From an uncultured cyanobacterium (lineage in GTDB: Bacteria > Cyanobacteriota > Cyanobacteriia > Pseudanabaenales > Pseudanabaenaceae), in the NCBI GenBank assembly GCA_963703315.1, contig OY969811.1, positions 3,232,001 through 3,296,000 on the forward strand: a stretch of DNA of 64,000 nucleotides. The letters run 5' to 3'. Both the position numbers and the translations under genes were made by a program. Of this stretch, positions 739 through 63,232 are shown in pieces (position 1 is the stretch's first letter; each line of letters begins with the position of its first letter). A model generated the notes under the pieces. The model made no database searches, was not told where the DNA came from, and saw nothing but the letters and a program-made list of their open reading frames with translations.

Positions 739-773
739 ATTAGTAATGTGTGGCAAAGCCACGCATTACTAAT
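739..773. repeat. Intergenic palindrome with GC-AAA-GC triloop
   Basis: attagtaatgtgtggc-aaa-gccacgcattactaat, one mismatch. Confidence 0.8.
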
Positions 774-808
774 ATTTATGTATTTTGTAACTCTGGATCG
801 AATTTTCC

Positions 809-1543
809 ATGACTTATTCTCTGCGAATTGTCGATATGGCTGAGAGCGATCGCCCTCGTGAGAGATTACTTAGTCAGGGCGTTCGGAGTCTATCTAATGC
901 TGAGTTAATTGCGATTTTGCTAGGAACGGGGCAAGGTGCAGGGAAACTGTCGGCGGTGGGGTTAGGACAACTGATTTTGCAAACCATTGGCAAAGATCGC
1001 ACTAGTGATCCTGTGGCAGCTTTGCAGTCCGTATCGCCACAGGAACTTATGCAAATCGAGGGCGTAGGACCAGCGAAGGCGACGGCAATTTTGGCGGCGA
1101 TCGAGTTAGGCAAGAGGGCGCTTTACGCGAAACCGCCTGATTTGACGGAAGTTACCGATCCATCGGTAGCGGCGGCGGCGCTGAGTCAAGACTTGATGTG
1201 GCAACCCCAAGAACGTCTGGCGGTGGTGATGCTCGATAACAAAAATCGGATTATTGCCCAACGCATTATCACGATTGGCACAGCGACAGAAACCCTTGCC
1301 CATCCCCGTGATATTTTTCGAGAGGTTTTAAAAAGTGGCGCAGTTCGTCTGATCGTGGCGCACAATCACCCCTCTGGCAATACATCTCCTAGTCCTGAAG
1401 ACATTACGCTCACCCGTCAGTTATTAGAAGCAGCAAGGATGCTGAGTATTCCTCTGTTAGATCATTTGATTTTGGGTAACGGCACTTTTTCGAGCATTCG
1501 CGAAGTTTCGACTTTATGGCAAGAGGTTCCGCAATCAGAGTAA
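809..1543 (+). CDS. radC: RadC-family JAB-domain protein
   Basis: N-terminal RPRERLL..G...[14 protein letters not shown], HhH motif [12 protein letters not shown] motif HNHPSG...PSPED, LLDHLI. Confidence 0.95.
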
Positions 1544-1565
1544 TAACAATTGACTAAGGTGTTGT

Positions 1566-1633
1566 TACACTTCACCAGCTTTTAGCTGGGCGATCGCCTA
1601 TTCTAACCAAAGATTAAGATCGCGATTGTAGAG
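1566..1633 (-). pseudogene. Short remnant of a DUF29-family gene 5' end
   Basis: The minus strand reads LYNRDLNLWLE*AIAQLKAGEV*, near-identical to LYDHDLNLWLKEAIAQLKAGDF of the DUF29 gene at about 3280-3345. Confidence 0.75.
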
Positions 1634-1641
1634 TAAGTTTT

Positions 1642-1772
1642 TATAGCCATAGCCAAGCAAGTTAAGACATAAAACCAAAAAGAGAGTGGCGGCGCAAAGC
1701 GCCGCCACTCTCTTTTTGGTTTTGGTTTTGTCCTAACATAACTGACTATATCTATAACAGGCTTGGCTATAG
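1642..1772. repeat. TA-bounded mini-element (family C) with a 25-bp-arm hairpin and AAA loop
   Basis: tatagcc..gttaagaca ... tgtcctaac..tgactata shell around aaaaccaaaaagagagtggcggcgc-aaa-gcgccgccactctctttttggtttt. Extra atagccaagc/gcttggctat inverted pair. Related shell at 23208-23298. Confidence 0.7.
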
Positions 1773-2147
1773 TTTGAATCATTTGTTCTCTCGCCCCATA
1801 TCAAATCCTTAAAGGCAATAAAGACTAGATATCTTCCCAAAAATCGATAGTTAACAGTGAAGTAATATCACTGCTCAATTGCCATGTATCAGGAAAATTT
1901 ACAGATTTATAACCTGTATTTCTTCTAACTATGCGTAAAGCATCATCAAAAGCATCCTGAAATAACTCAGGATTACTAGCGTAATTTTTTAAACTCGGTG
2001 ACTGTTTGAGAATGTCTCTGAGTGCATTGCGAGTTCTGTCAATAGTTTCCACCCACCCCGCATAGTCATATTCACTTTTGATATAGCAACGCTTTAGCAA
2101 ATGCTCAATTAGCGTAGTCAATCTTTGCTTGATTTCCCGTCTATCTC

Positions 2148-3214
2148 GGCACTGGTCATTGAATTAGTGGTATGAGAAAATAGAGGCAGAGGAAAGGAGA
2201 AAGCTATGGAATGCCCCCACTGCCAGAGCCAAAAGATCATCAAAAATGGCAAACATCACCACCAAGATGGCAAAGCTATCCAGAACTATTTGTGTAAAGG
2301 ATGCGGCAAGAGATTTAGTGAAAGGACAGGAACGCCAATGTCAAGGCTGAGAACACCAGCAAGTGTCGTATCCTTAGCGCTAAAGATGAGGAGTGAAGGG
2401 ATGGGAATCAGAGCCAGTGGGAGAGTCCTCGAAAAATCCCATGTCAGCATCATGAGATGGGAGCAAAAATTGGCAACCCAGTCACAGCAATGGAGTCCAG
2501 ATGCCCCAGCAGGAGGAGATATAACAGTCGAGGGAGATGAGGTTTACACTCGCGTAGGCGAGAACCTTCCCCCCCTCAAAGTCAAAAGGATGGACAGTGA
2601 CATTCATTGAGCGTAAGAGTCGCTATTGGATTGAGGCAAGGGTAGGACTCAAAACCACTGAATTATTTACTAAAGCAACCAAAACAGCATGGCAATGGGC
2701 AAAGGCAAGTCAATACATCCGATGGTTTACCGATGGCGAAAGACGCTATGCCCAACAACTATAGCAAATGGCAAGTGTGCGCCTCAAATCCACTGAAGTA
2801 AGTCGTGAGTATGGACATCGCAAGGTATGGCGACATGGCTTAGAAGTTGCGATCAAAATTAAAAGTTCACAGGGAAATCGTCGGGTCGAATGGCTCAAAC
2901 CTGAGCATCCCTATACGGCTATTAGCGACAAGTGTGACATTCATGCCAATCACAATGAAGCTAACAACAGTGCTTTGAGAAGGAGATGTAGTGCTTATCG
3001 TCGCAGACAAAACCTATATGCGAAGAATACCGAAGGATTACAACGAGCAGTCACTGTGCAAAGATTAGTTCACAACTGGGTGAGACCTCATGTCGGCTTA
3101 GGGAAGAATAAGACTCCAGTTATGGCGATCGGGCTATATCATCGACCGCTTTCCATGCTGGAGTTGCTTTCACTACGAGGCTTTCACTCCCTCACGATTT
3201 AACTGACCAGTGCC
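2148..3214 (+). mobile_element. IS1-family insertion sequence, 1067 bp, transposase defective
   Basis: Terminal inverted repeats ggcactggtca/tgaccagtgcc; 9-bp direct repeat gtctatctc at 2139-2147 and 3215-3223. Zn-ribbon CPHC...YLCKGC plus HTH; DDE motifs EGDEVYT, WFTDG, HNEANN. Confidence 0.92.
2206..3202 (+). pseudogene. IS1-family transposase split by a +1 frame change at CTTCCCCCCC and an in-frame TAG
   Basis: ORF A is 2206-2610. The +1 frame continues SKSKGWTVTFIERKSRYW..WFTDGERRYAQQL*(2762-2764)QMASVRL to 3202. Confidence 0.85.
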
Positions 3215-3403
3215 GTCTATCTCTACCAGCCAAACCCTCTAACTCCTCCACGAGATTTTCAATATCAAGATTTTGGAAATCTCCAGCTTTTAACTGCGCG
3301 ATCGCCTCTTTTAACCAAAGATTAAGATCGTGATCGTAGAGAGAGGTTTTAGAAGGTTTGGGTAAGGCTTGAGTCATAGCAGATACTCAACACAGCGAGC
3401 AAA

Positions 3404-4591
3404 TTAACGAATGTACTCTTTTAAAACGCTATTACGGTTAGGATGGCGCAACTTGCGGAGAGCCTTAGCTTCGATTTGGCGGATACGCTCACGGGTGACA
3501 TTGAAGATTTGACCGATCTCTTCAAGGGTTTTCATGCGTCCATCGTCTAAGCCATAGCGCAAACGCAAGACATCACGCTCTCTAGGGCTGAGGGTTCCCA
3601 ACACGCTTTCAAGATCTTCACGTAGGAGGCTCTTAGCAACCTGATCATCAGGGGTTTCACCTTCGGACTCGATGAAGTCACCGAGGCGAGAGTCTTCTTC
3701 CTTACCGATGGGAGTTTCTAGAGATATCGGCAACTGGGCAGATTTGGCGATAAAGCGGAGCTTTTCGATCGTCATCTCCATGCGCGTTGCAATTTCTTCC
3801 TCGGTAGGCTTACGTCCCATTTCTTGAGAAAGTAACTTGGTAGTTTTCTTAATCCGCGAAATAGTTTCGTAAAGATGGACAGGAAGACGAATAGTACGGG
3901 ATTGATCGGCGATCGCTCTCGTAATTGCCTGACGAATCCACCATGTCGCGTAGGTTGAGAATTTATAACCCTTTTCGTGGTCAAACTTCTCAGCCGCACG
4001 GATCAAGCCTAAACTGCCCTCTTGGATCAAATCTTGGAAGGACAAGCCGCGATTCATGTACTTTTTGGCGATCGATACTACGAGACGTAGGTTCGACTGC
4101 ACCATTTTGTCTTTGGCGCGGCGACCAGAGTGGAGGCGTTTGCGAAATTCGCCGAGGGGCATCCCCATTTTGACTGCCCAATCAGGCTCACGCACATCAT
4201 CGGGATGACAATCAATTTCGGTAGCTATTTCTTCACGCTTTAGCTCTAGCTCTAGCAAGTCGGCAATTTTACGAGCTAGCTCAATCTCTTCATCGGCTCT
4301 CAATAGTCGAATCCGACCAATTTCTTGCAAGTAGAGACGAATTGAGTCTTCGGTAAAATGTTTTTTCTTAGTTTGACTGGCTCTTTTTTTAGTTCCCCTC
4401 GTTTTGCCAGCTTTATCAGGGTCATCGTCAGAATCAGCGTCTTCATCTAGGTCATCAATTAAGTCGTCCTTTTCGAGTTCGATTTCATCATCAATATCGT
4501 CAAGGTCTTCTTCAATTTCTTCAAGATTTCCGCCAAGTTTGCCAACAGGCAACTTGATTTCAATAGGTAGGTCGATGGCTGCTTTGCTCAT
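3404..4591 (-). CDS. sigA: Principal (group 1) RNA polymerase sigma factor
   Basis: [80 protein letters not shown]; acidic N-terminus. ATG at 4591 preferred over TTG at 4666. Confidence 0.96.
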
Positions 4592-4838
4592 GCCAGATTC
4601 CTCAGATCCGAACTGTCTAAAACTTTGTCTACGGGGAATTACACCTAGATGATTGTAGCTTGCCAAACATAAAAATGGTGGTTTGAGCTACTCAGTTAAT
4701 TACGAATATCTTAAATCTAAGAGTTGATGCGTAATTTTTAAATTGGGTATGATCAGTGTAATTCCTACTTATACATTTATAGTCTAACGATGGTAGACCC
4801 GACTAAAAAACTTTTTGATTTTAAAAATTTTTGAGAAC

Positions 4839-4933
4839 TATAGCGTTTCACAGTTTAGTGAAGTAGAGGATTGTTTACCCGCCTTCGGCGGGGAAACAAT
4901 CCTCTATACCTCGCTTGCTTGAAAAGCGCTATA
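4839..4933. repeat. TA-bounded mini-element family A
   Basis: tatagcgtttcacagt.tagtgaagtagaggattgttt..cgcc-ttc-ggcggggaaacaatcctcta...cgctata. Copies at 8424-8529, 9087-9168 and 29316-29412. Confidence 0.85.
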
Positions 4934-5013
4934 TCGCATTTAGGAGCAAGACAAGGGGCTTAAGCCCCTTGTTATAGACTGTTATTTCTCACGACTCATT
5001 GAGGATTGCTATA
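4930..5013. repeat. TA-bounded mini-element carrying the palindrome acaaggggcttaagccccttgt
   Basis: Perfect 22-bp palindrome. The right end gaggattgctata matches the left end tatagcaatcc of the 8424 element. Confidence 0.65.
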
Positions 5014-5110
5014 AGTAGCTAGACATAATTAAAACCCAAAAACTTTTGGCGCACGCTGCGCATGCGCCAAAAGTTTTTGGGTTTTATATTTAATTGCGCC
5101 TAGCGACTTA
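5012..5110. repeat. TA-bounded mini-element family B
   Basis: taagtagct..cataattaaaaccc...ggcgcacgc-tgc-gc.tgcgcc...gggttttatatttaatt..actta. Copies at 29214-29317, 50595-50699 and 52789-52865. Confidence 0.85.
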
Positions 5111-5165
5111 GACACATTTAATCCGTTTAAAGGATACATTTATTAAGTATTATTAAATTTTAATT

Positions 5166-5741
5166 ATGCCTAAGTCTAATAAAGTATCCCTAGCTTCAAT
5201 CGGTTTATTTGTCGGTGGAATCCTCTTTTTAGTTGGCTTTTGGGCTTATGCTAAGGGCAACTCTACTTTAAATTTAATTGGCTTTTTCTATGGGTTTCCG
5301 ATCCTATTGGGAGGATTTGCGTTTAAATCCTCGGAAGTGACACCCGTACCGATAATTATTCCTGAATCTGACGATATTGTGGCTGTACGCAAGGTACAAG
5401 AAACTCCTACACAAAAGCAACTTCGCAAAGATGTGACACGCTATCGCTATGGTATCAAGGCACATTTAGATGAAGTTTTAGAAAAATTAGGGATGCGTCC
5501 CACAGATGAGGAACGTCCTGTCTTGATTGGGATCTATGAGGCAATTTCTCAAGCTGAAGAGTCTAAGGGTGCGTATAGTTTGGTTTTGCGGTTTCAGTCG
5601 CCTTTGATGGGTTTTGATGTTTGGCAACAAAAGCAAGAAAAATTCACACGATTTTTTGGTCCTGGCATCGTGGCATCGGTTACAGAACTGGAAAATAAGG
5701 AGGTTGATTTGTATTTGATTTCGCAGAATGTAGGTGATTAG
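5166..5741 (+). CDS. DUF2854-family membrane protein
   Basis: Two TM segments, FYGFPILLGGFAFK, QLRKDVTRYRYG..AHL, KFTRFFGPG. Confidence 0.85.
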   Translation: MPKSNKVSLASIGLFVGGILFLVGFWAYAKGNSTLNLIGFFYGFPILLGGFAFKSSEVTPVPIIIPESDDIVAVRKVQETPTQKQLRKDVTRYRYGIKAHLDEVLEKLGMRPTDEERPVLIGIYEAISQAEESKGAYSLVLRFQSPLMGFDVWQQKQEKFTRFFGPGIVASVTELENKEVDLYLISQNVGD

Positions 5742-5799
5742 CTTTGAGCGATTAGTTTTTAGAAATTAGCTTTTAGCTAGCTATGAATTACGAATTACA
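5738..5799. repeat. Degenerate heptamer short tandem repeats (TTAGCTT-like, then AATTACG)
   Basis: ttagcttt..ttagtttt..ttagcttttagct followed by aattacg aattaca; STRR-type. Confidence 0.5.
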
Positions 5800-5823
5800 A
5801 ATGAGTTTTAGTTTCTTTTACAA

Positions 5824-6402
5824 ATGAGTTTAGTTTCTTTTGCGGCTTTAATTGCAGGGGCAAGATCTGGGAAATTGGTTAGTTTTCCAACGGATACTGT
5901 CCCTGCTTTGGCGGTGCGTCCCGATCGCAGTGAGGATATTTTTAGACTCAAGCAGCGATCGCCTGATAAACCTTTGATCTTGATGGCATCGAGTTGGCGG
6001 GAATTTCTGCCTTTTATTGATCTGGAGCATTCTGCTGTAGAAATTTGGCAACAAACTGCTCAGAAATATTTTGCAGGAGCCGTTACTTTGGTTTTGCCAT
6101 CGAGCGATCGCGGCTGTCGGTTAAATCAAGGCTTTACAACTCTAGGCGTGAGAATTCCTGATAGTAAAGTGGCGATCGCCATTTTGCAGCAAACAGGAGC
6201 GATGCTGACTACTAGTGCTAATAAAAGTAATGAACCGCCTTTACGCAGCATGATCGAAATTGATCATGCTTTTCCCTCGGTATTGACCTTAGGTGATGGG
6301 ATTGATCTGACTGAGCGATCGGGGAGTGGATTACCGTCAACGGTAGTCGAATGGACGGCGGATGGCTGGCTAGTGCGTCGTCAAGGAGCAGTGAAATTTT
6401 AA
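5824..6402 (+). CDS. tsaC: L-threonylcarbamoyladenylate synthase (Sua5/YrdC)
   Basis: FPTDTV, LKQRSPDKPL, GVRIP, TTSANKS, PSTVV, RQGAV. Confidence 0.92.
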   Translation: MSLVSFAALIAGARSGKLVSFPTDTVPALAVRPDRSEDIFRLKQRSPDKPLILMASSWREFLPFIDLEHSAVEIWQQTAQKYFAGAVTLVLPSSDRGCRLNQGFTTLGVRIPDSKVAIAILQQTGAMLTTSANKSNEPPLRSMIEIDHAFPSVLTLGDGIDLTERSGSGLPSTVVEWTADGWLVRRQGAVKF

Positions 6403-6436
6403 AAAAGAAAGGGCGCTCAGCGCCCTTTCTTTTTTA
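6400..6436. terminator. Perfect palindrome spanning stop codon to stop codon of two convergent genes; probable bidirectional terminator
   Basis: taaaaaagaaagggcgc-tca-gcgccctttctttttta. Confidence 0.75.
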
Positions 6437-8423: not shown

Positions 8424-8529
8424 TATAGCAATCCCTAGATAATTTTGAAAGTGGTTGCAAGCGAGTTGCAGAGGATTGTTTCCCCGCCAAAGGCGGGGAA
8501 ACAATCCTGTACTTTAGTGAAACGCTATA
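8424..8529. repeat. Family A mini-element, reverse orientation, chimeric left end
   Basis: aggattgtttccccgcc-aaa-ggcggggaaacaatcct...gtgaaacgctata; the right end overlaps the rimI stop codon. Confidence 0.8.
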
Positions 8530-9086: not shown

Positions 9087-9168
9087 TATAGCGTTTCACA
9101 GTCTAGTGGAGTAGAGGATTGTTTCCGCGCCGAAGGCGGGGAAACAATCCTCTACAAAAAGCGCTATA
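9087..9168. repeat. Family A mini-element
   Basis: tatagcgtttcacagtctagtggagtagaggattgtttccgcgcc-gaa-ggcggggaaacaatcctctac..gcgctata. Confidence 0.85.
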
Positions 9169-11351: not shown

Positions 11352-11404
11352 GCCAATATTTTATTAAAAATGAGGCAAAGCATCACTTTTAATAAAATAT
11401 TGGC
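11352..11404. repeat. Intergenic palindrome with GC-AAA-GC loop
   Basis: gccaatattttattaaaa.tga.gc-aaa-gcatcacttttaataaaatattggc. Confidence 0.75.
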
Positions 11405-13197: not shown

Positions 13198-13244
13198 TCA
13201 AGAATTAGTGGTGCGGGGCTTTGCCCCGCACCACTAATTCTTGA
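13198..13244. repeat. Perfect 22-bp-arm palindrome, TTT/AAA loop, downstream of ictB
   Basis: tcaagaattagtggtgcggggc-ttt-gccccgcaccactaattcttga. Confidence 0.85.
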
Positions 13245-23446: not shown

Positions 23447-24052
23447 ATGACCCAAGCCTTAATCCGCCCTACCACATCTAACGAACAAGATCGCGATCAA
23501 CACCTCATCTATTCGGGTATTACTTGGGAGCAGTTTAAGCTCATCCAAGCAGGTTTTGCTGATTCCAATAGAGTAAGGCTTTTTTATTACCAAAATACCA
23601 TCGAAATTCTCATGCCAGGATATGCCCACGAATTCTATAAAACAATTATTGGTTTCCTAATCGAACTTTTTTGCTTAGAAAATAATATTGAATTTGAGCC
23701 AACTGGTTCCATGACTCAACAGCATGAGGGAGAAGTTTCTGTTGAGCCAGATGAATCCTATTGTTTTGGAACATCAAAGCCCACTCCTGACCTAGTAATC
23801 GAAGTGATCTTTACTAGCGGTAGTCCTAAGAAACTACAACGTTATCAAGCTTTAGGGATTCCTGAAGTATGGTTTTGGCAAGATGGTGTATTTAGTCTCT
23901 ATCGTTTACGCGATCGCACCTATGAAGTGATTTCCCAGAGCGAAATTCCAGAGCTTGCAGGTTTAGATATAGATTTATTAACTCGCTGTGTCTCAATGGC
24001 ACAAACTTCACGATTAGAAGCAGCAAATACATTCCGTAATGCTCTCAAATAA
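23447..24052 (+). CDS. Uma2 (DUF820) family endonuclease-like protein
   Basis: ITWEQF, LMPGYAHE, EPDESY, PDLVIEV, YQALGIPEVWFW. Confidence 0.92.
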   Translation: MTQALIRPTTSNEQDRDQHLIYSGITWEQFKLIQAGFADSNRVRLFYYQNTIEILMPGYAHEFYKTIIGFLIELFCLENNIEFEPTGSMTQQHEGEVSVEPDESYCFGTSKPTPDLVIEVIFTSGSPKKLQRYQALGIPEVWFWQDGVFSLYRLRDRTYEVISQSEIPELAGLDIDLLTRCVSMAQTSRLEAANTFRNALK

Positions 24053-24089
24053 AAAAGAGGTAGTGCAAAGCACTACCTCTTTTTTATTT
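24047..24089. terminator. Palindrome between convergent Uma2 and guaA
   Basis: aaataaaaaagaggtagtgc-aaa-gcactacctcttttttattt. Confidence 0.75.
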
Positions 24090-29213: not shown

Positions 29214-29412
29214 TAAGTATCTCAGCATAATTAAAACCCAGATCTAAAACCTGTGGCGCACGCTGCGCGTGCGTCACAGGTTTTAGGGTTTTATATTTAA
29301 TTAAGCCTACTTACTTATAGCGTTTTACAGTCTAGTGAAGTACGGGATCGTTTCCCTACTAAAGGTAGGAAAACGATCATCTATACCTAGCTTGCTGGAA
29401 GAGTGCTGTATA
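29214..29412. repeat. Family B element (29214-29317) joined through TA to a family A element (29316-29412)
   Basis: taagtatct...aaaacctgtggcgcacgc-tgc-gcgtgcgtcacaggtttt...tactta, then tatagcgttttacagtctagtgaagta...cctact-aaa-ggtagg...gtgctgtata. Confidence 0.85.
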
Positions 29413-30221: not shown

Positions 30222-30278
30222 TCCAAACCCCAAAAAGAGTTGCGGCGCTTCGCGCCGCAACTCTTTTTGGGGTTTGGA
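30222..30278. repeat. Perfect 27-bp-arm palindrome, TTC/GAA loop
   Basis: tccaaaccccaaaaagagttgcggcgc-ttc-gcgccgcaactctttttggggtttgga. Confidence 0.9.
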
Positions 30279-38711: not shown

Positions 38712-38745
38712 AAAAAATCCCTCACAGCAATGTGGGGGATTTTTT
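38712..38745 (+). terminator. Rho-independent terminator of psaAB
   Basis: aaaaaatccctcaca-gcaa-tgtgggggatttttt: GNRA tetraloop, G-U pair and U tract. Confidence 0.85.
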
Positions 38746-42533: not shown

Positions 42534-43640
42534 ATGGGAATGCGATCGCCAAATCAGCAAAATCTTTTATCTTCTTTTGTGCGCGTTGCGATCGCTGCGA
42601 ATACATTTATAGTTATTTCCCTTAACTGGAATGCTCAAAATAATACTACTTGGGCAAAAAGTCTCCCAACCACAGAAAATTCATCAAACAAATTAAATTC
42701 CAATCGTTTTTTATTCATAGATTTACAAAGCCATTGGTCACGTCTATTTGTTGAAGGATTACTGTCCAATCAAGCTGTGAGCAATATTTTAGTTGATTCA
42801 GAAACTAGTCGTTTTCAGCCCGATCGCCCCATTACCCGTGCTGAGCTTGCCAATATATTAGAGATTGCCTTTGCTAATCGAAATGCACCCAAGATTACAA
42901 CGCGCTTAAATGATCCTGCCACCAAAGCCGAGACCTTAGTGGCGATCGCCCGTGAACTCAACCTAAACAGCAAAGCTCACAATACACCGCAAACATATTT
43001 GCTATCAATGTATCGAGATGCTTTGAAAATACCTGACTATGCTATTCCTGCGATCGCCACACTTACCCAACAAGGTTTAGTCACTAACTATCCCGATCCA
43101 CGTATCCTTGCGCCTACGAATGCCATTACTAAAAGTGAACTAGCAGTACTGCTATATCAAGCCCTTGCTTATCAAAAGAAATTACCAGCACTAGGCTCGC
43201 TCTATACGATTAATCCCAATCGACAACTGTGGGATCGGGAACTGATGCAGGTGACGCGCCTCGAAGTTAGCATCAGCAAGCGCAAAGTGACCGCCTTTCA
43301 TGGCGAAATACCTTTGAAAACATACTCTATTGCGGTAGGTAAATCGGGATGGAGTACACCCATTGGCAATCATCGGGTTTTACAAACTATTGAATATCCT
43401 GCTTGGCAAAATCCCTTTACAGGAGATGTGATTGCTAGCAAAGATCCTGAAAATCCTTTAGGCGATCGCTGGATTGGCTTTTGGACAGATGGCAAAAACT
43501 GGTCAGGATTTCACGGTACACCTAACCGAGATTCGGTTGGACAAGCTGCCTCTCACGGATGTATCCGTATGTATAACGAAGATGTGCGCGAATTATTTAG
43601 TCAAGTAACTGTTGGAACTGTGGTGAGGGTATCTCCCTAA
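42534..43640 (+). CDS. SLH-domain L,D-transpeptidase (YkuD family)
   Basis: FIDLQSHW, FQPDRPITRAELA, IAVGK....TP.G, GFHGT......GQAASHGCIRM. Confidence 0.9.
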   Translation: MGMRSPNQQNLLSSFVRVAIAANTFIVISLNWNAQNNTTWAKSLPTTENSSNKLNSNRFLFIDLQSHWSRLFVEGLLSNQAVSNILVDSETSRFQPDRPITRAELANILEIAFANRNAPKITTRLNDPATKAETLVAIARELNLNSKAHNTPQTYLLSMYRDALKIPDYAIPAIATLTQQGLVTNYPDPRILAPTNAITKSELAVLLYQALAYQKKLPALGSLYTINPNRQLWDRELMQVTRLEVSISKRKVTAFHGEIPLKTYSIAVGKSGWSTPIGNHRVLQTIEYPAWQNPFTGDVIASKDPENPLGDRWIGFWTDGKNWSGFHGTPNRDSVGQAASHGCIRMYNEDVRELFSQVTVGTVVRVSP

Positions 43641-43690
43641 AAAAAGTTGATGATTACGGCGCTTTGCGCCGTAATCATCAACTTTTTTAG
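43637..43690. terminator. Palindrome spanning both stop codons of convergent genes
   Basis: ctaaaaaaagttgatgattacggcgc-ttt-gcgccgtaatcatcaacttttttag. Confidence 0.8.
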
Positions 43691-47402: not shown

Positions 47403-47439
47403 TTAAAAAAGGGGTCGTGCTTCGCACGACCCCTTTTTA

Positions 47440-50594: not shown

Positions 50595-50699
50595 TAAGTA
50601 GCTGGGCATACTTAAAAATTAGATCCAAAACCTGTAGCGCACGCGCAGCGTGCGCTACAGGTTCTTGGGTTTTGGATTTAATTTGCGTCCAGCTACTTA
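50595..50699. repeat. Family B mini-element flanked by a 12-14-bp direct repeat
   Basis: taagtagct...acctgtagcgcacgc-gca-gcgtgcgctacaggt...agctactta; taatttattgctaa at 50581-50594 and 50698-50711. Confidence 0.85.
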
Positions 50700-51917: not shown

Positions 51918-51974
51918 ATATACCGAAGAATGAAGTTGCGGTGCTTTGCGCCGCAACTTCATTCTTCGGTATAT
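51918..51974. repeat. 27-bp-arm palindrome overlapping the last 16 nt of tsaB
   Basis: atataccgaagaatgaagttgcggtgc-ttt-gcgccgcaacttcattcttcggtatat. Confidence 0.9.
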
Positions 51975-52684: not shown

Positions 52685-52788
52685 GTTAAACTGTTATACC
52701 CCTTAGAGAGATTGCGTCTATTTAAGCTAGCACAAAACGAGAAATAGACACACAAATTATTTTTAGCATTAGCTACTATCTTAATTCA

Positions 52789-52865
52789 TAAGTACCTTGA
52801 CACAATTAAAAACAGTTCAAAAACCTGTGGCGCACGCTCCGCGTGCGCCACAGGTTTTTGAGTCT
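52789..52865. repeat. Family B mini-element, right end degenerate
   Basis: taagtacc..cacaattaaaa..tcaaaaacctgtggcgcacgc-tcc-gcgtgcgccacaggtttttga. Confidence 0.8.
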
Positions 52866-52896: not shown

Positions 52897-53748
52897 ATGG
52901 ATAAACTTTCTCTTTTCCCAACTGAAGATGGCTCTGTTACGTTTTGGTCAGAAACTTTTCAAGAAACTTTCCATAGCTCTCACGGCGCGAAGCACGAAGC
53001 TGAAGCCAAGTTTGTCATTCCCGCAAGAATTGCAGAAAAAGCTGCATCTCAAACTCAACTCCATATCCTTGATGTTTGCTATGGCTTAGGCTACAACACG
53101 GCGGCAGCGATCGCCTGTGTCCATGAGTTACCAAATCGCACCGCTAATCTACACATCATTGCTCTCGAAAATAATCTTGAGGTTCCGCAAAAAGCGATCG
53201 CTTCAGGATTAGTAAATATTTGGCAACCAGCGATCGCCCAAATCCTCCAAACTGCTGCTGCAAAACAAATTGTCGAAACTGAAGATTTGTCTTTACAACT
53301 TCTGATCGGTGATGCCAGACAAACTATTAGGCAAGTTCCTATGCAATGGGCAGATGCCATCTTTCTTGATCCCTTCTCTCCCCCCCATTGCCCCCAACTC
53401 TGGACAGTGGAATTTATTAAACTTCTAGCCAACTGCCTCAAACCTGATGGCTATCTCGTTACTTACTCCTCATCTGCCGCCGTGCGTGCTGCCATGCTGG
53501 AAGCTCGTTTACAAATTGGGGCGATCGCACCCATCGGACGCAAATCTCCCAGCACGATCGCCGCTTTCCCTCCTACACCATTACCCCCCATATCTGAAAC
53601 CGAAGCCGCTTTCCTGAAGACTCGTGCTGCCATTCCCTACCGCGATCGCACCCTTACAGCCACAGCTTCAGAAATCATTGCTAGCCGCCAAGCCGAACAA
53701 AACAGTAGCAACTTGCCACCGAGTTCTAGCTTACGCAAAAAAGTTTAG
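52897..53748 (+). CDS. MnmC/MnmD-like SAM-dependent methyltransferase
   Basis: TEDGSVTF.S..F.ETFHS..GA, LDVCYGLGYN, GDAR, FLDPFSP..CPQLWT, TYSSS. Confidence 0.88.
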   Translation: MDKLSLFPTEDGSVTFWSETFQETFHSSHGAKHEAEAKFVIPARIAEKAASQTQLHILDVCYGLGYNTAAAIACVHELPNRTANLHIIALENNLEVPQKAIASGLVNIWQPAIAQILQTAAAKQIVETEDLSLQLLIGDARQTIRQVPMQWADAIFLDPFSPPHCPQLWTVEFIKLLANCLKPDGYLVTYSSSAAVRAAMLEARLQIGAIAPIGRKSPSTIAAFPPTPLPPISETEAAFLKTRAAIPYRDRTLTATASEIIASRQAEQNSSNLPPSSSLRKKV

Positions 53749-53787
53749 ATAGAGCGCGAAGCACTCTATCTAAACTTTTTTGCGTAA
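53731..53787. repeat. 27-bp-arm palindrome overlapping the last 18 nt of the methyltransferase gene
   Basis: ttacgcaaaaaagtttagatagagcgc-gaa-gcactctatctaaacttttttgcgtaa. Confidence 0.9.
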
Positions 53788-54312: not shown

Positions 54313-54385
54313 GCGTCCTTAGTTCAGTTGGTAGAACGCAGGTCTCCAAAACCTGATGTCGGGGGTTCGAGTCCCTCAGGGCGCG
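54313..54385 (+). tRNA. trnW: tRNA-Trp (CCA)
   Basis: Acceptor GCGTCCT/AGGGCGC, D arm AGTTCAGTTGGTAGAAC, anticodon arm CAGGT-CTCCAAA-ACCTG, T loop GTTCGAG; canonical position before secE. Confidence 0.97.
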
Positions 54386-55964: not shown

Positions 55965-55975
55965 TAGGAGTAATC

Positions 55976-56689: not shown

Positions 56690-56812
56690 AAATAAAGCCT
56701 TTCAAAGTCGTCCATCTTGCAAGAGCATTAACCAAAAGTTTTTACTCTTGCAAAAATTAAAAAAGCTAAGTCTAATTGTTGTCATCAGCCTAGAAAGAAA
56801 TTTCGACAATCA

Positions 56813-56928
56813 AATAGATCCATAGACAGCAGGTGCTAATAGCTTAATTTCCTGCCGAGGTGATTTAAGAAATATTCCGATCCAGAATATTTCTTGAGCC
56901 TCTCTCTATGAATAGACGAGGCTTTTTT
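56813..56928 (+). ncRNA. L10 leader (ribosomal-protein autoregulatory RNA) with terminator
   Basis: agacagcagg....ttaa...cctgccgagg core upstream of rplJ, followed by agcctc...gaggctttttt. Confidence 0.82.
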
Positions 56929-57012
56929 AATGACTTTAAAGATCCCCAAGTTAATAGACATCGTGCTTAGTGCCATGTTTATTAACTCCAAACATAAGGA
57001 GGTGCAAAATAC

Positions 57013-57540
57013 ATGGGTAAGACCCTAGACCAGAAAAAAGTTCTAGTCGGAGAAATGACTCAAGAGTTTGAAGGAACTCAGATGGTCATGGTAATCGATT
57101 ATTCAACTTTGTCAGTAGCGGAGATTACGAAGCTCCGTCGCTCTCTCCGTCCTACAGGCACGGTATGTAGAACGACTAAGAATACTCTTCTCAAACAAGC
57201 AATTTCAGGTACTCCTGAATGGAAGCCTCTAGAAGACTTTCTAGTTGGTCCTTCTGCCTGTTTATTTGTCAAAGATGACATTGGCGGTGCTGTTAAGGCA
57301 TACCAAGCTTTTCAAAAGGAATCTAAAAAAACCGAACTTCGTGGCGGTGTTTTAGAAGGTCGTGCATTGACTGCAAAAGACTTGCAGGCGATCGCCGATC
57401 TACCTTCCAAGGAAGTACTCATCTCGCAAATTGCTGGTGCAATCAATGCAGTTACTGCCAAGATTGCGATCGGTATCAAAGAGGTTCCTCAGTCTCTTGG
57501 ACGCGCTATCAAAGCTGTTTCTGAGAAAGAAGCTGCTTAG
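57013..57540 (+). CDS. rplJ: 50S ribosomal protein L10
   Basis: DY..LSVAEI..LR, KNTL, LPSKEVL. Confidence 0.97.
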   Translation: MGKTLDQKKVLVGEMTQEFEGTQMVMVIDYSTLSVAEITKLRRSLRPTGTVCRTTKNTLLKQAISGTPEWKPLEDFLVGPSACLFVKDDIGGAVKAYQAFQKESKKTELRGGVLEGRALTAKDLQAIADLPSKEVLISQIAGAINAVTAKIAIGIKEVPQSLGRAIKAVSEKEAA

Positions 57541-57543
57541 AAC

Positions 57544-57585
57544 AATTGGTAATTACGAATTACGAATTATCAATTACGAATTATT
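57544..57585. repeat. Heptamer tandem repeat (AATTACG-type STRR), 6 units
   Basis: aattggt aattacg aattacg aattatc aattacg aattatt. Confidence 0.85.
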
Positions 57586-57616
57586 AACCTAATCTAATTA
57601 ACTAAAGAGAAAAACT

Positions 57617-58009
57617 ATGTCTGCAAAGATCGACAGCATTATTGAAGAACTAAAGACTTTGAGCCTTCTTGAAGCTTCTGAATTGGTCAAAGCGATCGAA
57701 GAAACCTTCGGCGTATCGGCTGCTGCTCCTGTTGGTGGTGTAGTAGTTGCTGCTGCTGGTGGCGGTGCTGCTGCTGCTGAAGAAGTTGAAGAAAAGACTT
57801 CCTTCGACTTGGTACTTGATGAAGTTCCTGCTGATAAGAAGATCGCGGTTCTGAAGATCGTTCGTGAAATCACTGGCTTGGGCTTGAAAGATGCTAAGGA
57901 CATGGTTGAATCCACTCCTAAGACCATCAAAGAAGGTATGCCTAAGGCTGATGCTGAAGCTGCTAAGAAGCAAATCGAAGAAGCTGGTGGTAAGGTTTCC
58001 ATCAAGTAA
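57617..58009 (+). CDS. rplL: 50S ribosomal protein L7/L12
   Basis: [45 protein letters not shown]. Confidence 0.99.
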
Positions 58010-58031
58010 TTGTTGGCAACACTTAGATTGC

Positions 58032-58094
58032 TTGTATGTCCTGCTTTGCAGGACATACAAAACCAGAATTAAAGGCACGCTTAGCGTGCCTTTA
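58032..58094. terminator. Two adjacent triloop hairpins after rplL
   Basis: ttgtatgtcctgc-ttt-gcaggacatacaa and taaaggcacgc-tta-gcgtgccttta. Confidence 0.65.
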
Positions 58095-58122
58095 TGATTA
58101 TGTAGCAGTATTTTGGAATAGT

Positions 58123-58401
58123 ATGAGCGACCCTTTATCAGAATTATTTGCGGTGATTGTCGATCGCCGCGAGAATCCCCAAGCAAGTTCCTACACTTGC
58201 AAATTATTTGCAGGTGGTGACAACAAGATTTTGAAAAAAATTGGTGAAGAGTCTGCCGAAGTAGTCATGGCTTGTAAAGATGATGATCCTGACGCGATCG
58301 CTGGGGAAGTTGCCGATTTGTTTTATCACACCTTAGTAGCGATCGCCCATCATCATGTCGATCTCCAACTTGTATATGACAAGCTGGCTCAGCGACGCTA
58401 A
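58123..58401 (+). CDS. hisE: Phosphoribosyl-ATP diphosphatase
   Basis: SYTCKLF..G..KILKKIGEESAEVVMA, GEVADLFYH. Confidence 0.93.
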   Translation: MSDPLSELFAVIVDRRENPQASSYTCKLFAGGDNKILKKIGEESAEVVMACKDDDPDAIAGEVADLFYHTLVAIAHHHVDLQLVYDKLAQRR

Positions 58402-58503
58402 AGATCGCATTAAGAAACTACGCAGTAATTTTTTAATGCGATCGCCCGAAATCATTATTAATGCAGTAAGATTACCTATGAATTGATCAAAGGGTAGATT
58501 GCT

Positions 58504-60435
58504 GTGGCATCGAATAGTGTAGAGCGTTCTCAGTCTCTGACAGGCAGTATTGTAAAAGGCACTCTCAAAGCTGTTGGCGGCACTTTGCTAGGCATTATTA
58601 TGATTGGTGGTGCAGCCGTAGCTGGTGGACTAGTGGGATTAGCACTCAGTTTTCGCGATCTGCCCGATGTCAGAGTCCTTAAGGGTTATGTCCCTGTGGA
58701 AACTACCTATATTTATGACATTAATGGTGGACTAATTGCTCGTCTACATGGCGATGTTAACCGCGAAGTTGTTACCCTTGATCGCATTTCTCCCCATTTA
58801 AAGCGATCGGTTCTGGCGATGGAAGATGCTTACTTCTATACCCACAAAGGTATTGATCCTAGCGGTATTGGACGCGCAATTTTAGCTAATTTTAGTGCAG
58901 GTGGAACCGTTGAAGGTGGCTCAACCCTCACCCAGCAATTAGTCAAAAACTTATTTTTATCTAACGAACGTAGTCTCAATCGCAAAGTGGCTGAAGCCGT
59001 CTTGGCAATGCGCGTTGAGCAAGTATTTACCAAGGAACAAATCCTTGAAATGTACCTCAATCAAGTATTTTGGGGAAAAAATACTAATGGAGCCGAAACT
59101 GCTTCTCAGAATTATTTTGGTAAATCGGCGGCTGACTTGACTCTTGGGGAGGCTGCCATATTAGCAGGTACGATTCAAGCCCCATCAGTATTTAATCCTG
59201 TAGATAACTATGCTGAAGCCAAGAAGCGACAAGGTTTAGTACTTGATCGCCTGTTAGAACTGGGATGGGCAACACCCGCCGAAATTAAAGCTGCCAAAGC
59301 CCAAAATATTACCATTCGGAAGCAAGGTATCTCCTATGAAGCTAGTCGCGTTCCTTATGTTTCTCAAGCTGTAACCGCAGAGTTAGAAGAAAGATTTGGG
59401 CGCGATGTGGTTTTACAAGGTGGGTTGCGTGTCCAAACGACGATTGATTTAAAGTTACAACGGATTGCTGAGGAAACTGCTGCTGAAGGTCATCGAGACT
59501 TAGTGGATCGTGGAGCCTATGCCGATCAATTGGCTTTAGTGGCTGTCGATCCCCGCACGGGCTTTGTGAAAGCTTTAGTGGGTGGGGTCGGTGATTTTGA
59601 TAAAAATCAATTTAATCGCGCAGTTTTAGCAAGAAGACAATTAGGCTCTTCGTTTAAGCCTTTTGTTTACTATGCTGCTTTTGCTACAGGCAACTACACT
59701 CCAGATTCCGTAATTGACGACAGTCCAATGTCAATTCCTGATGGTGATGAACCATACGTGCCACGCAACTACGACAATAAGTTTTCAGGTGCTATTTCCA
59801 TTCGTCAGGCGATCGCCGTTTCTCGAAATATTCCTGCGCTCAAACTAGGTCTGGAAGTTGGTAATGAGAATGTAGTTGCTATTTGCCGTAAATTAGGGAT
59901 CAATAGTCCGATTAAACCCGTTGTGTCTTTACCGCTTGGGGCTGCTGATGTCACCCCGATGGAAGTGGCAGGAGCCTATGCGGTATTTGCTAGTGGTGGC
60001 TATAAATCAAAAACTACATTAATTGCCCGTGTCACCGATCGCAATGGCAATCTCGTACTAGACAATACTCCCAAGCCAGAGTTAATTCTTGATCCGATCG
60101 CCGTTTCTTACTTAACTGATGCCTTACGTGGAGTAGTGACTAATGGTACAGCAACTGAAGCCCAAATGAGTGACGGGCGACCTGTCGCAGGTAAGACAGG
60201 TACTACCTCTGACTTTCGCGATGCTTGGTTTGTGGGCTATACTCCCCAGTTATCGGTAGCAATTTGGATCGGTAATGATGATTATTCACCAATGGCAAAT
60301 GGCGTGACGGGTGGTGTCTATGTCGTTCCGATTTGGCGAAAATTTATGGAAAGAGCATTAGCTGGACAACCGATTGAGCAGTTCCCAGTCCCATCCGAAA
60401 TCCAAGAAAAAGAAGGTGGCAAAAAGAAAAACTAA
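58504..60435 (+). CDS. Class A penicillin-binding protein (transglycosylase/transpeptidase)
   Basis: EDAYFYTHKG, GGSTLTQQLVKN, SSFK, SRN, GKTGT. Confidence 0.95.
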   Translation: MASNSVERSQSLTGSIVKGTLKAVGGTLLGIIMIGGAAVAGGLVGLALSFRDLPDVRVLKGYVPVETTYIYDINGGLIARLHGDVNREVVTLDRISPHLKRSVLAMEDAYFYTHKGIDPSGIGRAILANFSAGGTVEGGSTLTQQLVKNLFLSNERSLNRKVAEAVLAMRVEQVFTKEQILEMYLNQVFWGKNTNGAETASQNYFGKSAADLTLGEAAILAGTIQAPSVFNPVDNYAEAKKRQGLVLDRLLELGWATPAEIKAAKAQNITIRKQGISYEASRVPYVSQAVTAELEERFGRDVVLQGGLRVQTTIDLKLQRIAEETAAEGHRDLVDRGAYADQLALVAVDPRTGFVKALVGGVGDFDKNQFNRAVLARRQLGSSFKPFVYYAAFATGNYTPDSVIDDSPMSIPDGDEPYVPRNYDNKFSGAISIRQAIAVSRNIPALKLGLEVGNENVVAICRKLGINSPIKPVVSLPLGAADVTPMEVAGAYAVFASGGYKSKTTLIARVTDRNGNLVLDNTPKPELILDPIAVSYLTDALRGVVTNGTATEAQMSDGRPVAGKTGTTSDFRDAWFVGYTPQLSVAIWIGNDDYSPMANGVTGGVYVVPIWRKFMERALAGQPIEQFPVPSEIQEKEGGKKKN

Positions 60436-60444
60436 CTCACAAGA

Positions 60445-60678
60445 TTGAGTAGCCACTTTATGCACCTGAAGGTGATGTCCTTGAAAATATTTCCCCAATT
60501 TTTGTTTGTTTTGCGATTGCTAATTTATTCAGCGATTGTCTCGGCTGTGATTAAATATGCTGTACCCAATTGGTTGGTATTAAGTGAACTGACCGAAGAT
60601 GCCGTGAATGCGATCGCCTTCTTCTGTATCACCATACCTGTGGCATTATTTGCTTTTGTTTTATGGCTAAAGCGCTAA
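60445..60678 (+). CDS. Small two-TM hypothetical protein
   Basis: Two hydrophobic segments (SAIVSAVIKY; ITIPVALFAFVLW); start uncertain. Confidence 0.6.
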   Translation: MSSHFMHLKVMSLKIFPQFLFVLRLLIYSAIVSAVIKYAVPNWLVLSELTEDAVNAIAFFCITIPVALFAFVLWLKR

Positions 60679-60745
60679 AGATTCTGCAATTTAATGGCGC
60701 GGCAAGCCGCGCCATTAAATATTTTCATTATTTTAGAGCGAAGCG

Positions 60746-61273
60746 CTAATAATGCTTAATCATTACAAAGCAATTACGACCATTAACCATCGTTTCCGAG
60801 CGAATCTCATTGGCGACGGTTTTGGCGATAAATAAGCCCCTACCCCCCGTAGGAATGTCATCGACACTGGCAAAATCTTGATTTTTTGCGGCTTCTCTAC
60901 TAACTCGTTCTATTTCCGCCTGTAGGTCAAAAGGTTCCCCATAGTCCCAGATCCTTAATTCTAAAAATCTTTCGGTTTCATTAATGGTAATTTCAATGTC
61001 AATAGGAGTTTCTTCAGGAAGTCCTGCATGGGCATAGGAGACAACATTGGTAAAAACTTCAACTAACACCAGATTGCATTGCATCCAAGTTGGGTTTGGC
61101 AACAAATTTTGAAACTGCTGAAACCACTCTTGCAATTGGCTAAGAGCATAAATGTCAGTATTAACTTGGATATGATAATGCTGTAACACTGATGATTGAT
61201 CTGATGTTGTAAGAATCTGACGTTTTAAACTTAAAATCCAGTTATTGGCGGTTATACCAACGCATGAGGACAC
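60746..61273 (-). CDS. RsbW-like anti-sigma / HATPase_c protein
   Basis: [29 protein letters not shown]; true start probably downstream of 61273. Confidence 0.87.
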
Positions 61274-62585
61274 CTGCTAATTTCTCCGAATCATGACATA
61301 CTGTGCCATTCTCTTTCTCTCTCATGATGTTGGCAATTAAGATAGGACAGCCCATTGCGGCAAGGTTATCTCGATCTAAATGTGTAAAGTGGGAGCCAAA
61401 GGTCGCATAGTGTTGTAGCGATCGCTCAGAAGGTGGTGACTTTTGGACTAAAACGACATCAAATAGTCGCACACCTGCTAACTCATCTAAAACTCTTACA
61501 TAATCAGACACCGCATAATTATCCGTTTCACCTACCTGACTCATGATATTACAAAGATAGATCGATGGTACATGGCGATCGATCAAGGCTTGTAATATTT
61601 CAGGTACGAGCAGGTTAGGAATAATGCTGGTATATAGGCTGCCAGGTCCAATTACAATCAGATCAGCTTCGTTAATATCCTCAACTGCTTGCGGCAATCC
61701 TTGGGGATTATCTGGTTTACAGCCAATATGTTTGATTTTACCTCTGGCTTCAGGAATATTCGACTCTCCCTCCACATAACGCCCATCTTCAAACTCAGCC
61801 CATAGCACCATGTGATCAAGAGTGGCAGGTAAGACGCGACCACGTACGGCTAAAACCTGTGAACTGGCGGCGATCGCCTTTTCTAGATCCCCTGTAACTT
61901 CACTCATCGCGGTCAGGAATAAATTCCCAAAGCTATGTCCTGTTAGCCCTTCTCCTGTTTTAAACCGATATTGAAATAGCTCAGTCACTAATTTTTCTTC
62001 GTCGGCAAGGGCAGCAAGACAATTACGAATATCGCCGGGGGGCAGAACTCCATGCTCACGGCGCAACCGTCCAGAGGAGCCACCATCATCCGCAACCGTG
62101 ACGATCGCTGTAATATTGGCGCTATATTGCTTCAGCCCCCTTAGCAAATTCGACATCCCTGTACCACCGCCCACAGTGACAATTTTGGGACCTCGATTGA
62201 GTTTGCGATGGGAGACTAGTAACTCTAATAGTTCTTTATTTTGATCGGGGATCAAAACTTGCGTAATCGAACCGAGGGCGCGTTTTTGACCTAGCCATAG
62301 CAGCCCTAGACCAATGGCTAAGGCGATCGGACCACTAAGATTGCGTGGCAAAATCGCAACTAAGGTGTCAACACCATTACGGATCAAACGCGAGATAAAT
62401 AAAATCGGGGTTAGTTTTGCGGAAATCGCAATTCCCAACACGATTAAAACAATGCCGATAATGCTAACCAATAGCCATCGCTTCACAAATAAGCCTGGCA
62501 AAAACCACTGAAAACCCCTCAGCCATTTTCTTTGCTTAGCTGCTGAACGAGATCGATTCGCTGACGGCTTTTTTGATGGCTTCAT
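61242..62585 (-). CDS. YvcK/CofD-like (UPF0052) protein with N-terminal TM segments
   Basis: GGGTG...[46 protein letters not shown]. Confidence 0.93.
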
Positions 62586-62598
62586 CTAGCACCCTGTT

Positions 62599-63045
62599 TT
62601 AGCATCCTGTAACATGAACCAGCACTTCGCGGGTATGCCCCAAGTTGCGATGTTCCCAGACAAAAATTCCTTGCCAAGTACCGAGGGCAAGTTTACCATT
62701 AGCGATCGGGATAGTTTCTGAGGTTTTAGTGATAGTACTGCGAATATGTGATGGCATATCATCAATTCCTTCAGAAATGTGGCGATATTGACTCGCATCT
62801 TCAGGAATGAGTTTTGAGAAAAAGGTTTCCAAATCTGCCAATACATCTGGATCGGCATTTTCTTGAATGATTAAACTCGCGGATGTATGCCGCAAAAAGA
62901 CGTTGCATAGTCCCATCTTGATCCCTGATTGAGCAAGAATAGCTTCCACTTGGCGGGTGATATTGTGCAGTTTTTTGCCATTAGTACGCAGCGCTATGGT
63001 TTGCTGCACCATATATTGCACTGTTTGTGGTTGACCTGCGATCAT
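62599..63045 (-). CDS. YjbQ (UPF0047) family protein
   Basis: HTSASLIIQENADPDV, EG.DDMPSHI, LGTWQGIF.WEHR. Confidence 0.93.
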   Translation of the reverse strand: MIAGQPQTVQYMVQQTIALRTNGKKLHNITRQVEAILAQSGIKMGLCNVFLRHTSASLIIQENADPDVLADLETFFSKLIPEDASQYRHISEGIDDMPSHIRSTITKTSETIPIANGKLALGTWQGIFVWEHRNLGHTREVLVHVTGC

Positions 63046-63073
63046 AAATTTTTCCTCAAAGGCTGTAATTCAT

Positions 63074-63232
63074 TTTTAGCGCGGCTATGCCACGCCGCAA
63101 ACAATCGGTTATTTATTTACTGCGTGTCCCTTACCCCAATTCACAAAAGTGTTGTTACACTTTCGTGAATTAAAAACCAAACCCAGTAAGGGTTTTCAAA
63201 ACTAAAAATGGCTATGCCATTTTTAGTTTTGG
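63074..63232. repeat. Cluster of intergenic hairpins
   Basis: gcgcggc-tat-gccacgc; aattcacaaaagtgt..acactttcgtgaatt; aaaactaaaaatggc-tat-gccatttttagtttt. Confidence 0.65.

Follow-up and report, generated by a model that had tools for sequence, protein, structure and literature searches.

Triloop hairpins of a Pseudanabaena genome as cores of TA-bounded, mostly IS630-ended repeats and as free hairpins at gene ends

The window analysed here is a 64,000-nt stretch of the genome of an uncultured cyanobacterium of the Pseudanabaenaceae (contig OY969811.1, positions 3,232,001 to 3,296,000). Between its genes, which include psaB, a tsaB-like gene and a methyltransferase gene, we detected 30 hairpins of one class, in which a loop of three nucleotides is closed by a C-G pair and in most cases reads RNA on one strand (R, purine; N, any base; hereafter C-RNA-G). 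An earlier note on the window had listed 26 such sites with their loops; 25 of these were recovered within 3 nt, with the named loop on one strand and stems of 10-27 bp, and the 26th, at 63083, is a degenerate hairpin with 6/7 pairs. The hairpin 3' of psaB, which the note had set apart from the class for its GCAA tetraloop and G-T pair, is as it described. Eight of the 30 hairpins have the flanks of repeat families that resemble MITEs (miniature transposable elements with inverted repeats), and the hairpin at 8489 is a further remnant (Table 1). A search of the window against Rfam returned only a tRNA (54313-54385) and an L10 leader (56802-56937), and no known RNA family for the hairpins. The host genome is a single closed contig of 4.57 Mb with 42% GC, and carries 8,189 HIP1 sites as well as psaA/psaB.

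Table 1. Repeat elements and hairpins of the window, in window coordinates
Feature	Position	Strand	Remarks
Free triloop hairpin	739..773		Loop AAA at 755; 21 nt past stop codon
Family A MITE-like element, 115 bp	1642..1756		TA at both ends; IS630-like ends; loop AAA at 1696 on a central stem of 25 bp
Family D MITE-like element, 95 bp	4839..4933		Loop GAA/TTC at 4884; bounded by TA
Family C MITE-like element, 99 bp	5012..5110		Loop GCA/TGC at 5057; read from sequence
Free hairpin, A/T-tailed	6400..6436		Convergent spacer; triloop hairpin here in 8/8 relatives too
Truncated family D element	8457..8529		Loop AAA at 8489
Shortened family D element	9087..9168		TA ends; loop GAA at 9132
Free hairpin, 25-bp stem	11352..11404		Loop AAA at 11377
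Free hairpin, 22-bp perfect stem	13198..13244		Loop TTT/AAA at 13220
Free hairpin, A/T-tailed	24047..24089		Convergent spacer; loop AAA at 24067
Family C element, 104 bp	29214..29317		Loop GCA/TGC at 29264; right TA common with next element
Diverged family D element	29316..29410		Abuts family C element (29214..29317) at one common TA
Free hairpin with family A/F core, 27-bp perfect stem	30222..30278		Convergent spacer
psaB 3' hairpin	38712..38745	+	RNA-style; GCAA tetraloop; G-U pair; contrast case outside the triloop class
Free hairpin, 23-bp stem	43640..43688		Convergent spacer; loop TTT/AAA at 43663
Free hairpin, A/T-tailed	47406..47438		Convergent spacer; loop TTC/GAA at 47421
Family C element	50595..50698		Loop GCA at 50645
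Free hairpin with A/F core at tsaB-like gene end	51918..51974		Arm spans last 16 coding bases; other arm is inverted copy
Partial family C element	52788..52861		Loop GGA/TCC at 52838
Free hairpin at methyltransferase gene end	53731..53787		Arm spans last 18 coding bases
Family E element, 101 bp	63134..63234		Off-centre triloop ATA/TAT at 63213 and tetraloop hairpin; no IS match found

The genome-wide inverted-repeat scan that the earlier note had proposed showed strong enrichment of triloops. With one locally shuffled copy of the genome as background, perfect inverted repeats with a stem of at least 12 bp and a 3-nt loop numbered 1,164, against 2 in the shuffle; each other loop length gave 13-215. 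Among the 1,164, C-GNA-G (637) and C-ANA-G (415) together made up 90%. A wider scan for C-NNN-G hairpins, with mismatches allowed and stems of 11-36 bp, found 1,783 (1,333 perfect and 450 imperfect), of which 832 had GNA and 589 ANA loops, where random expectation is 12% and 17%; AAA was the most frequent single loop (476 copies). The pairs next to the loop were GC-GC in 84% and CC-GG in 8%, and the same C-RNA-G tip lay hidden inside longer loops, in 46/71 of those of 7 nt, 69/100 of 9 nt and 39/62 of 11 nt. Just 23 of the 1,783 hairpins fell within called genes; the gene set came from a crude home-made caller (3,566 calls kept), and all context counts carry some error. Stems seldom exceeded 29 bp, a ceiling that is perhaps set by SbcCD; the genome has two sbcD-like genes.

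When the hairpins were clustered by their flanks, with stems masked, 805 of the 1,783 shared flanks with other copies (800 in the main clustering and the rest in a small second cluster). They resolved chiefly into seven families (A-G) of 95-115 bp with sharp TA boundaries and a common layout: a terminal repeat of ~28 bp, the palindrome with its C-RNA-G tip, and a second terminal repeat. Near-full copies, chosen by their outer parts only, numbered 269, with TA at both ends in 183. Families A-D, F and G are short (well under the 600 bp taken as the upper limit for MITEs) and non-coding, with imperfect terminal repeats and 9-64 near-full copies each, as MITEs are; family E has 62 copies with just 6 end bases in common, and its copies carry two hairpins: the triloop, which lies off centre, and a tetraloop likewise seen in either orientation. 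Central stems vary among the families and the tip is found in all. The other 978 hairpins are free of such flanks: 315 contain the 10-bp inner core of a family with at most one mismatch, 204 more contain it within two, and 459 have unique stems and may have arisen in place. The earlier note had held that the hairpins share their loop and not their stems, which is true of these 459 but not of the class at large, where one 17-bp core recurs 242 times and the 805 lie in shared flanks.

The ends of most families match those of IS630 insertion sequences (ISs). The IS630 that the genome itself carries (960 bp, in 4 copies that are 98-100% alike), whose closest named relative is from a Pseudanabaena, matches the ends of family A at 20/24 bases. 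IS630 elements of relatives within the genus (Pseudanabaena throughout) match families C (19/24), D (19/24), F (20/24) and G (20/24), compared with 9-14 for non-partners. One copy of the own IS630 lies inside another multi-copy IS and duplicated TA on entry. Two open reading frames, of 130 and 145 aa, encode its transposase; the first has an A-run close to its end, as do frameshifted IS630 genes. The hairpin itself was not inherited from a parent IS, an origin we can exclude: a triloop hairpin is found neither in the own IS630 nor in any of 74 IS630 elements, drawn from 108 loci, whose terminal repeats were recognisable.

IS630-family transposition, as described for ISY100, proceeds into TA with TA duplication, and short ends suffice (PMC2170065). 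Joining the flanks of the 183 copies gave 33 matches to candidate empty sites, 14 of them flagged clean; after 3 self and 2 terminal matches had been dropped, 9 interior sites with a single TA were left. In the window, a plausible empty paralogous site for the family A element at 1642..1756 lies at ~3312-3377, again with a single TA. In relatives with about 75-91% gene identity, orthologous spacers hold different families or none: the spacer of 8457..8529 has another element or none in eight relatives, and the element at 9087..9168 is missing in 5/7 aligned relatives, with other hairpin families in the remainder. These relatives are too distant for many clean insertion junctions, and contigs of 14 public runs (mixed communities; one RNA run, share 0.07) gave neither a clean junction nor RNA 3' ends. 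Because the ends match, TA is duplicated and elements vary in presence, it is likely, on sequence grounds, that an IS630 transposase moves the elements in trans. Among the records matched by the window's family A element, 8/8 were Pseudanabaena plasmids; on this and on the closest named relative of its IS630 we assign the host to that genus. A phage collection searched with a family D copy gave no match. Element lengths peak at 95, 104-105 and 115-116 bp (14, 67 and 42 of 309 matches), roughly one helical turn apart. This hints at helical phasing, but the peaks stem from few families, and elements of 93, 97, 101 and 102 bp exist too.

The earlier note had looked to HUH or RAYT (REP-associated tyrosine) transposases; on that reading the hairpins would be REP (repetitive extragenic palindromic) or REPIN-like elements, generated and spread by such an enzyme, RAYT or IS200-type, acting on single-stranded hairpins. 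The genome does have one Y1 gene, a RAYT (NF047646, 85.3 bits, cut-off 80; G000:C1:347469-350750), and GTAG occurs just inside the ends of families B and C. That RAYT, however, is flanked by its own GTAG-type REP pairs, long-looped and of low copy number (7-21 exact motif matches), and triloop hairpins are absent up to 1.5 kb from the gene. The GTAG of B and C is part of paired IS630-like ends, the B/C end is also found on IS630 elements, and the arm consensus of the hairpins shows no unpaired GTAG/CGTC tag at the stem foot. TA duplication points to DDE transposition, the mode of the IS630 transposons that the family ends match. We therefore reject a REP/RAYT origin of the families, and give HUH-driven spread very little credence.

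The loops have no fixed orientation. Scored against asymmetric flanks in 318 copies, the two orientations occurred 157:151 (TAA/TTA loops being taken as forward), with both found in every family; closest copies agreed in just 157/301 cases, and flips were also seen between genomes with identical stems. The stems had changed and stayed paired. In the central stems (3,120 cells) we counted 97 compensated, 113 one-sided and 4 other changes, compared with 28 compensated, 732 one-sided and 45 other changes in the terminal repeats of the same elements (3,768 cells); family copies share ancestry, which means that these are not independent events, and the number of distinct change types in the central stems (43 compensated vs 77 one-sided) is the safer count. 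Pairing persists in the copies that have diverged most: their unpaired positions come to 0.69 per 12 bp, against an expectation of ~5.9 if nothing maintained the stems. Arms can also reach into genes: at 72 of 920 stop-proximal hairpins an arm covers at least 8 coding bases. At site 53758 the encoded C-terminus is conserved, coding overlap occurs in 6/29 genomes, and the second arm tracks the synonymous codons of each genome; at site 51945 a family core is joined to a 16-base copy of the gene end in the host genome only (1/30).

Concerted arm change, extension of an arm into its flank and inversion of the spacer between perfect arms were thus all found here. Template switching during replication yields these three outcomes, inversion requiring the intermolecular form (PMC8604942), and it is the likely means of upkeep. 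Recombination between arms could explain the flips but not the arm extension. An assembly or library artefact, in which the assembler perfects palindromes or flips loops, is scarcely credible: Logan contigs do often break at the elements, but the genome is one closed contig, the same class occurs in 47 other independent assemblies and is lacking in sister genera, flips are found in families with arms of 16 bp, and 450 of the 1,783 copies are imperfect.

The earlier note had placed the shaping of the hairpins at the level of DNA and had described both orientations regardless of gene direction, and on both counts the genome bears it out. Mismatches on the transcript strand were G-T in 144 and A-C in 151 cases, with no tolerance for G-U, and the purine loop was on the sense strand in 405/779. 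A weak sense excess near stop codons (252/460, p=0.045) qualifies the absence of strand bias relative to transcription. With respect to the genome strand, the loops were about even in all ten 500-kb bins; cumulative GC skew did not clearly mark origin and terminus, and gave no usable replichore frame.

Position, on the other hand, ties the hairpins to gene ends. Free hairpins lie at a median of 27 nt after a stop codon, and 425 of 535 in tandem spacers are within 60 nt of one; the share of spacers with a free hairpin is 62% for convergent, 42% for tandem and 37% for divergent ones. A hairpin of the class lies within 80 nt of the stop in 1,251 of 3,566 genes, and the remaining genes have few hairpins of the classic terminator type (87 sense vs 55 antisense). 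At least five T in the eight bases after the GC core occur in 172/302 convergent, 218/535 tandem and 48/122 divergent free hairpins. The earlier note's view that terminator use is secondary thus fits the origin and upkeep of the hairpins and understates their position. It is likely, judging by position, that free hairpins are kept as two-way transcript-end signals; as U-tracts are moderate, many may protect 3' ends instead of terminating.

Could the hairpins then be plain intrinsic terminators that work in both directions, with selection acting on the RNA of either strand, their symmetry due to two-way function and the MITEs mere carriers? The strong bias toward gene ends and convergent spacers speaks for this, as do the weak sense excess near stops and site 6417 (6400..6436), where a triloop hairpin is retained in 8/8 relatives with altered stems and loops. 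We nevertheless regard it as improbable. An RNA-level signature did not emerge from the mismatches or the loop sense, and even at one-way tandem sites near stops G-T (62) was no commoner than A-C (68). Stems of 15-30 bp exceed the needs of termination and extend into coding ends, 325 copies sit in divergent spacers, and long perfect hairpins are missing from the sister genera. A related tetraloop mini-hairpin is, moreover, far less stable as RNA than as DNA (PMC13037366).

Within Pseudanabaena such hairpins occur throughout the genus, and the three sister genera sampled have next to none. The 17-bp core was present in 47/47 other genomes of the genus (2-545 copies each) and, in sister genera, once in 1/23 genomes. 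Triloop palindromes per 100 kb, estimated from samples of 40-200 kb that were not random within the genus, numbered 37 in the host, 15-42 in eight relatives and 0-2 in three sister genera. G159, from another cyanobacterial family, had 11; among 40 hairpins sampled there, ten belonged to 95-bp elements, and its TA-bounded elements with GGA/AGA tips are unrelated to those of the host. Several TA-bounded repeats with central GC-RNA-GC hairpins occur in G159, and one type is present in the host genome as a 93-bp element. With a reversed control allowed for, an 11-bp mini-hairpin core was far commoner in the genus than in 299 other genomes; G295, G347, G368, G255, G253 and G325 had a moderate excess, and a longer GC core pattern detected G159 and not G295, G347 or G368. 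Genus-specific loss of a repair gene was considered and set aside for the three genes covered: ExoVII is present in 41/41 other genomes of the genus and several sister genera, and SbcD and MutS in 5/5 genomes (ExoI, RecJ and MutL were not searched).

A sharp taxonomic edge of this kind could also mark a dedicated protein of the host or of the elements, for instance a structure-specific nuclease, an invertase or a nucleoid or anchoring protein, that binds extruded C-RNA-G cruciforms and whose binding is under selection that fixes the loop, with flips arising by cruciform cutting and rejoining or by arm recombination. The closing C-G and the base at loop position 3 are strongly conserved while stems drift, and the same tip is found on at least five IS630 end types. 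There are precedents: N4 vRNAP and RepB' read such hairpins (PMC13037366, section 4.2), and chloroplast hairpin-loop inversions have been attributed to recombination (PMC12928735, citing Kim and Lee 2005). We think such a protein unlikely all the same. No candidate was found, the specific searches having covered Y1, IS630 and the three repair genes; the middle loop base is free and family-specific, and one core varies from 2 to 545 copies across the genus. For a coding end to be copied into an arm, DNA must be synthesised, which goes beyond binding or inversion. The trans-acting hairpin-binding protein that the earlier note had supposed is not required to explain the symmetry.

Why the loop is so restricted may lie in DNA chemistry, as the earlier note had recognised: the loops and closing pairs that prevail here are the ones found in the d(GCGNAGC) mini-hairpin, and in section 2.3 of PMC13037366 only GNA gave a mini-hairpin among 64 GCNNNGC oligonucleotides. 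By this measure the 832 GNA loops qualify and the 589 ANA loops do not fit. Within families, loop position 1 had changed from G to A in 39/245 copies (16%, vs 7.8% outside the loop; p=4e-5), and position 3 from A to G in 1/245 (vs 2.8%, p=0.016). The doubling at position 1 would follow if the opposite-strand C were exposed in the loop; the third base is held. Free hairpins have 377 ANA and 355 GNA loops, and those in elements 212 and 477. More ANA among free hairpins is as expected for decay of GNA, and we infer that ANA loops are largely its decay products. A sheared A-A closure is known for AAA loops. The bias may in part be a founder effect. Loop energies from ViennaRNA were identical for all triloops in both RNA and DNA modes, and hence uninformative on orientation. 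That a GNA tip makes stems more perfect was tried and rejected: genome-wide, GNA stems do have fewer mismatches than ANA stems (p=4e-6), an effect confounded by age, and within families the difference was not significant.

Taken together, we consider it probable that the hairpins are the central palindromes of TA-bounded repeats with IS630-type ends plus free hairpins at gene ends, likely moved by IS630 transposases, maintained by template switching and kept as two-way transcript-end signals. Starting from the element described above, a palindrome between terminal repeats that intact IS630 lacks, the transposase would carry copies in trans into TA sites. During replication, the polymerase would switch between arms, so that mismatches are repaired and the loop is inverted, or an arm is extended into flanking or coding DNA. 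More tentatively, the d(GC-GNA-GC) tip would ease single-strand folding, and GNA-capped palindromes would arise and persist; this nucleation is the weakest step of the explanation. Flanks would then decay, and hairpins past stop codons would, to judge by position, be retained as bidirectional terminators or 3'-end protectors.

Several observations weigh against this account. Family A alone has an IS630 partner inside the host genome, family B is tied to IS630 solely via the end it has in common with family C, and family E has no partner among 31 IS630 loci. For the 459 free hairpins with unique stems an origin in MITEs is unproven. With ExoVII, SbcD and MutS present, the restriction to one genus is not explained by loss of repair. 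As terminators, the tandem free hairpins have the T-tract in just 218 of 535 cases, and no T/A polarity was seen outside the stems. As regards the tip, AAA is the commonest loop, yet it gave no mini-hairpin in the 64-loop test (PMC13037366); within families, 146/189 GNA copies were perfect vs 40/56 of those with other loops (p=0.38); and the tetraloop of family E also flips, so flipping does not depend on a mini-hairpin. Transposition and template switching are themselves deduced from sequence patterns.

A bolder version is conceivable, though we doubt it: a replication ratchet nucleated by the mini-hairpin would have written most transcript-end hairpins of the genus, and MITEs of several unrelated IS630 lineages (and in at least one other cyanobacterial family) would have captured this hairpin independently as a hinge that pairs ends ~95, 105 or 115 bp apart. 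The host would then inherit two-way terminators set by DNA physics and not by RNA selection.

Most of the probable account draws on known processes, though they are combined in an unusual way: the cores come from IS630-type MITEs, template switching is their likely means of upkeep, and gene ends are where the host likely makes use of them. Correia, ERIC and RUP elements have TA ends. Together with the MITEs of Microcystis and Anabaena, these bacterial MITEs of IS630/Tc1-mariner type are likewise short, non-coding, intergenic, of high copy number and bounded by terminal inverted repeats, and they too form nested clusters and have proposed effects on transcript ends (PMC10969869, PMC2779907, PMC3542288). 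The families here differ in their long perfect central palindrome, with a mini-hairpin tip that is missing in 74/74 IS630 elements and inverts within families, and in cores that persist after the elements are gone, in the form of about a thousand free hairpins at gene ends. Quasi-palindrome correction by template switching (Ripley; Lovett; Hazkani-Covo) shares arm homogenisation, extension and reversible spacer inversion, and one recurrent flip in Table 2 of PMC8604942 is of GAA/TTC, in a triloop closed by C-G; here, by comparison, the sites number ~1,800 and take in a third of gene ends, the loops are of one class, and the process is read from its products. Small hairpin-loop inversions of chloroplasts also have short loops between inverted repeats of 11-24 bp in both orientations (PMC12928735, citing Kim and Lee 2005), but their loops are of 5-50 bp at few sites, and those here are of 3 nt, sequence-biased and MITE-linked. 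The d(GCGNAGC) mini-hairpins of N4 promoters, ssiA and the G4 origin have the same GNA loop and GC-GC or CC-GG closure; they are single protein-read signals of phages and plasmids (PMC13037366), whereas here they cap long chromosomal palindromes, 33% of them ANA. REP/RAYT systems (GTAG families, including the cyanobacterial GTAG-15/16) are likewise extragenic palindromes, mostly downstream of genes, and they frequently contain G-T pairs and border RAYT genes (PMC3733652); the hairpins here do neither.

The elements appear not to have been described in the literature we searched on Pseudanabaena repeats, palindromes and MITEs and on cyanobacterial IS630 MITEs; most subscription papers and Elhai et al. 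2008 on small cyanobacterial repeats were outside the search. In the searched text of PMC4060949, PMC3733652, PMC10969869, PMC13613805, PMC12642595 and bioRxiv 2024.01.18.576219 the design is not described and the genus is not named; the supplements of the MITE census preprint, PMC2779907 and PMC3542288 fall outside this statement and may list such elements.

A third of the genes here have a long 3' hairpin that is apparently transposon debris and apparently maintained by mutation and not by RNA selection. This bears on how cyanobacteria, to our knowledge a phylum without Rho, terminate transcripts; in Synechococcus elongatus, canonical terminators end just 22% of transcription units (PMC12642595). 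Culturable Pseudanabaena would offer hundreds of natural replicates on which to measure the rate of template switching in vivo and its dependence on the loop, to trace how a MITE becomes a terminator, and to see if very short transposons are helped to move by a DNA mini-hairpin. There is also a warning for covariation-based discovery of RNAs, as compensatory changes occur here without evidence of RNA-level selection.

Two further observations concern the window itself. At 60689-60720 a hairpin with a perfect stem of 15 bp has a loop of just two nucleotides, AA, and contigs of three public runs have an extra A that makes it an AAA triloop; the loop length there is either polymorphic or misassembled. 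A direct repeat of ~60 bp with a HIP1 site (1576-1640 and 3285-3350) brackets a cassette, and the family A element is placed at the TA that ends its left copy. Within the same region a DUF29 gene on the minus strand is split into an N-terminal part (3192-3377) and a C-terminal part (1825-2121), interrupted by a broken IS1-family element at about 2206-3202.

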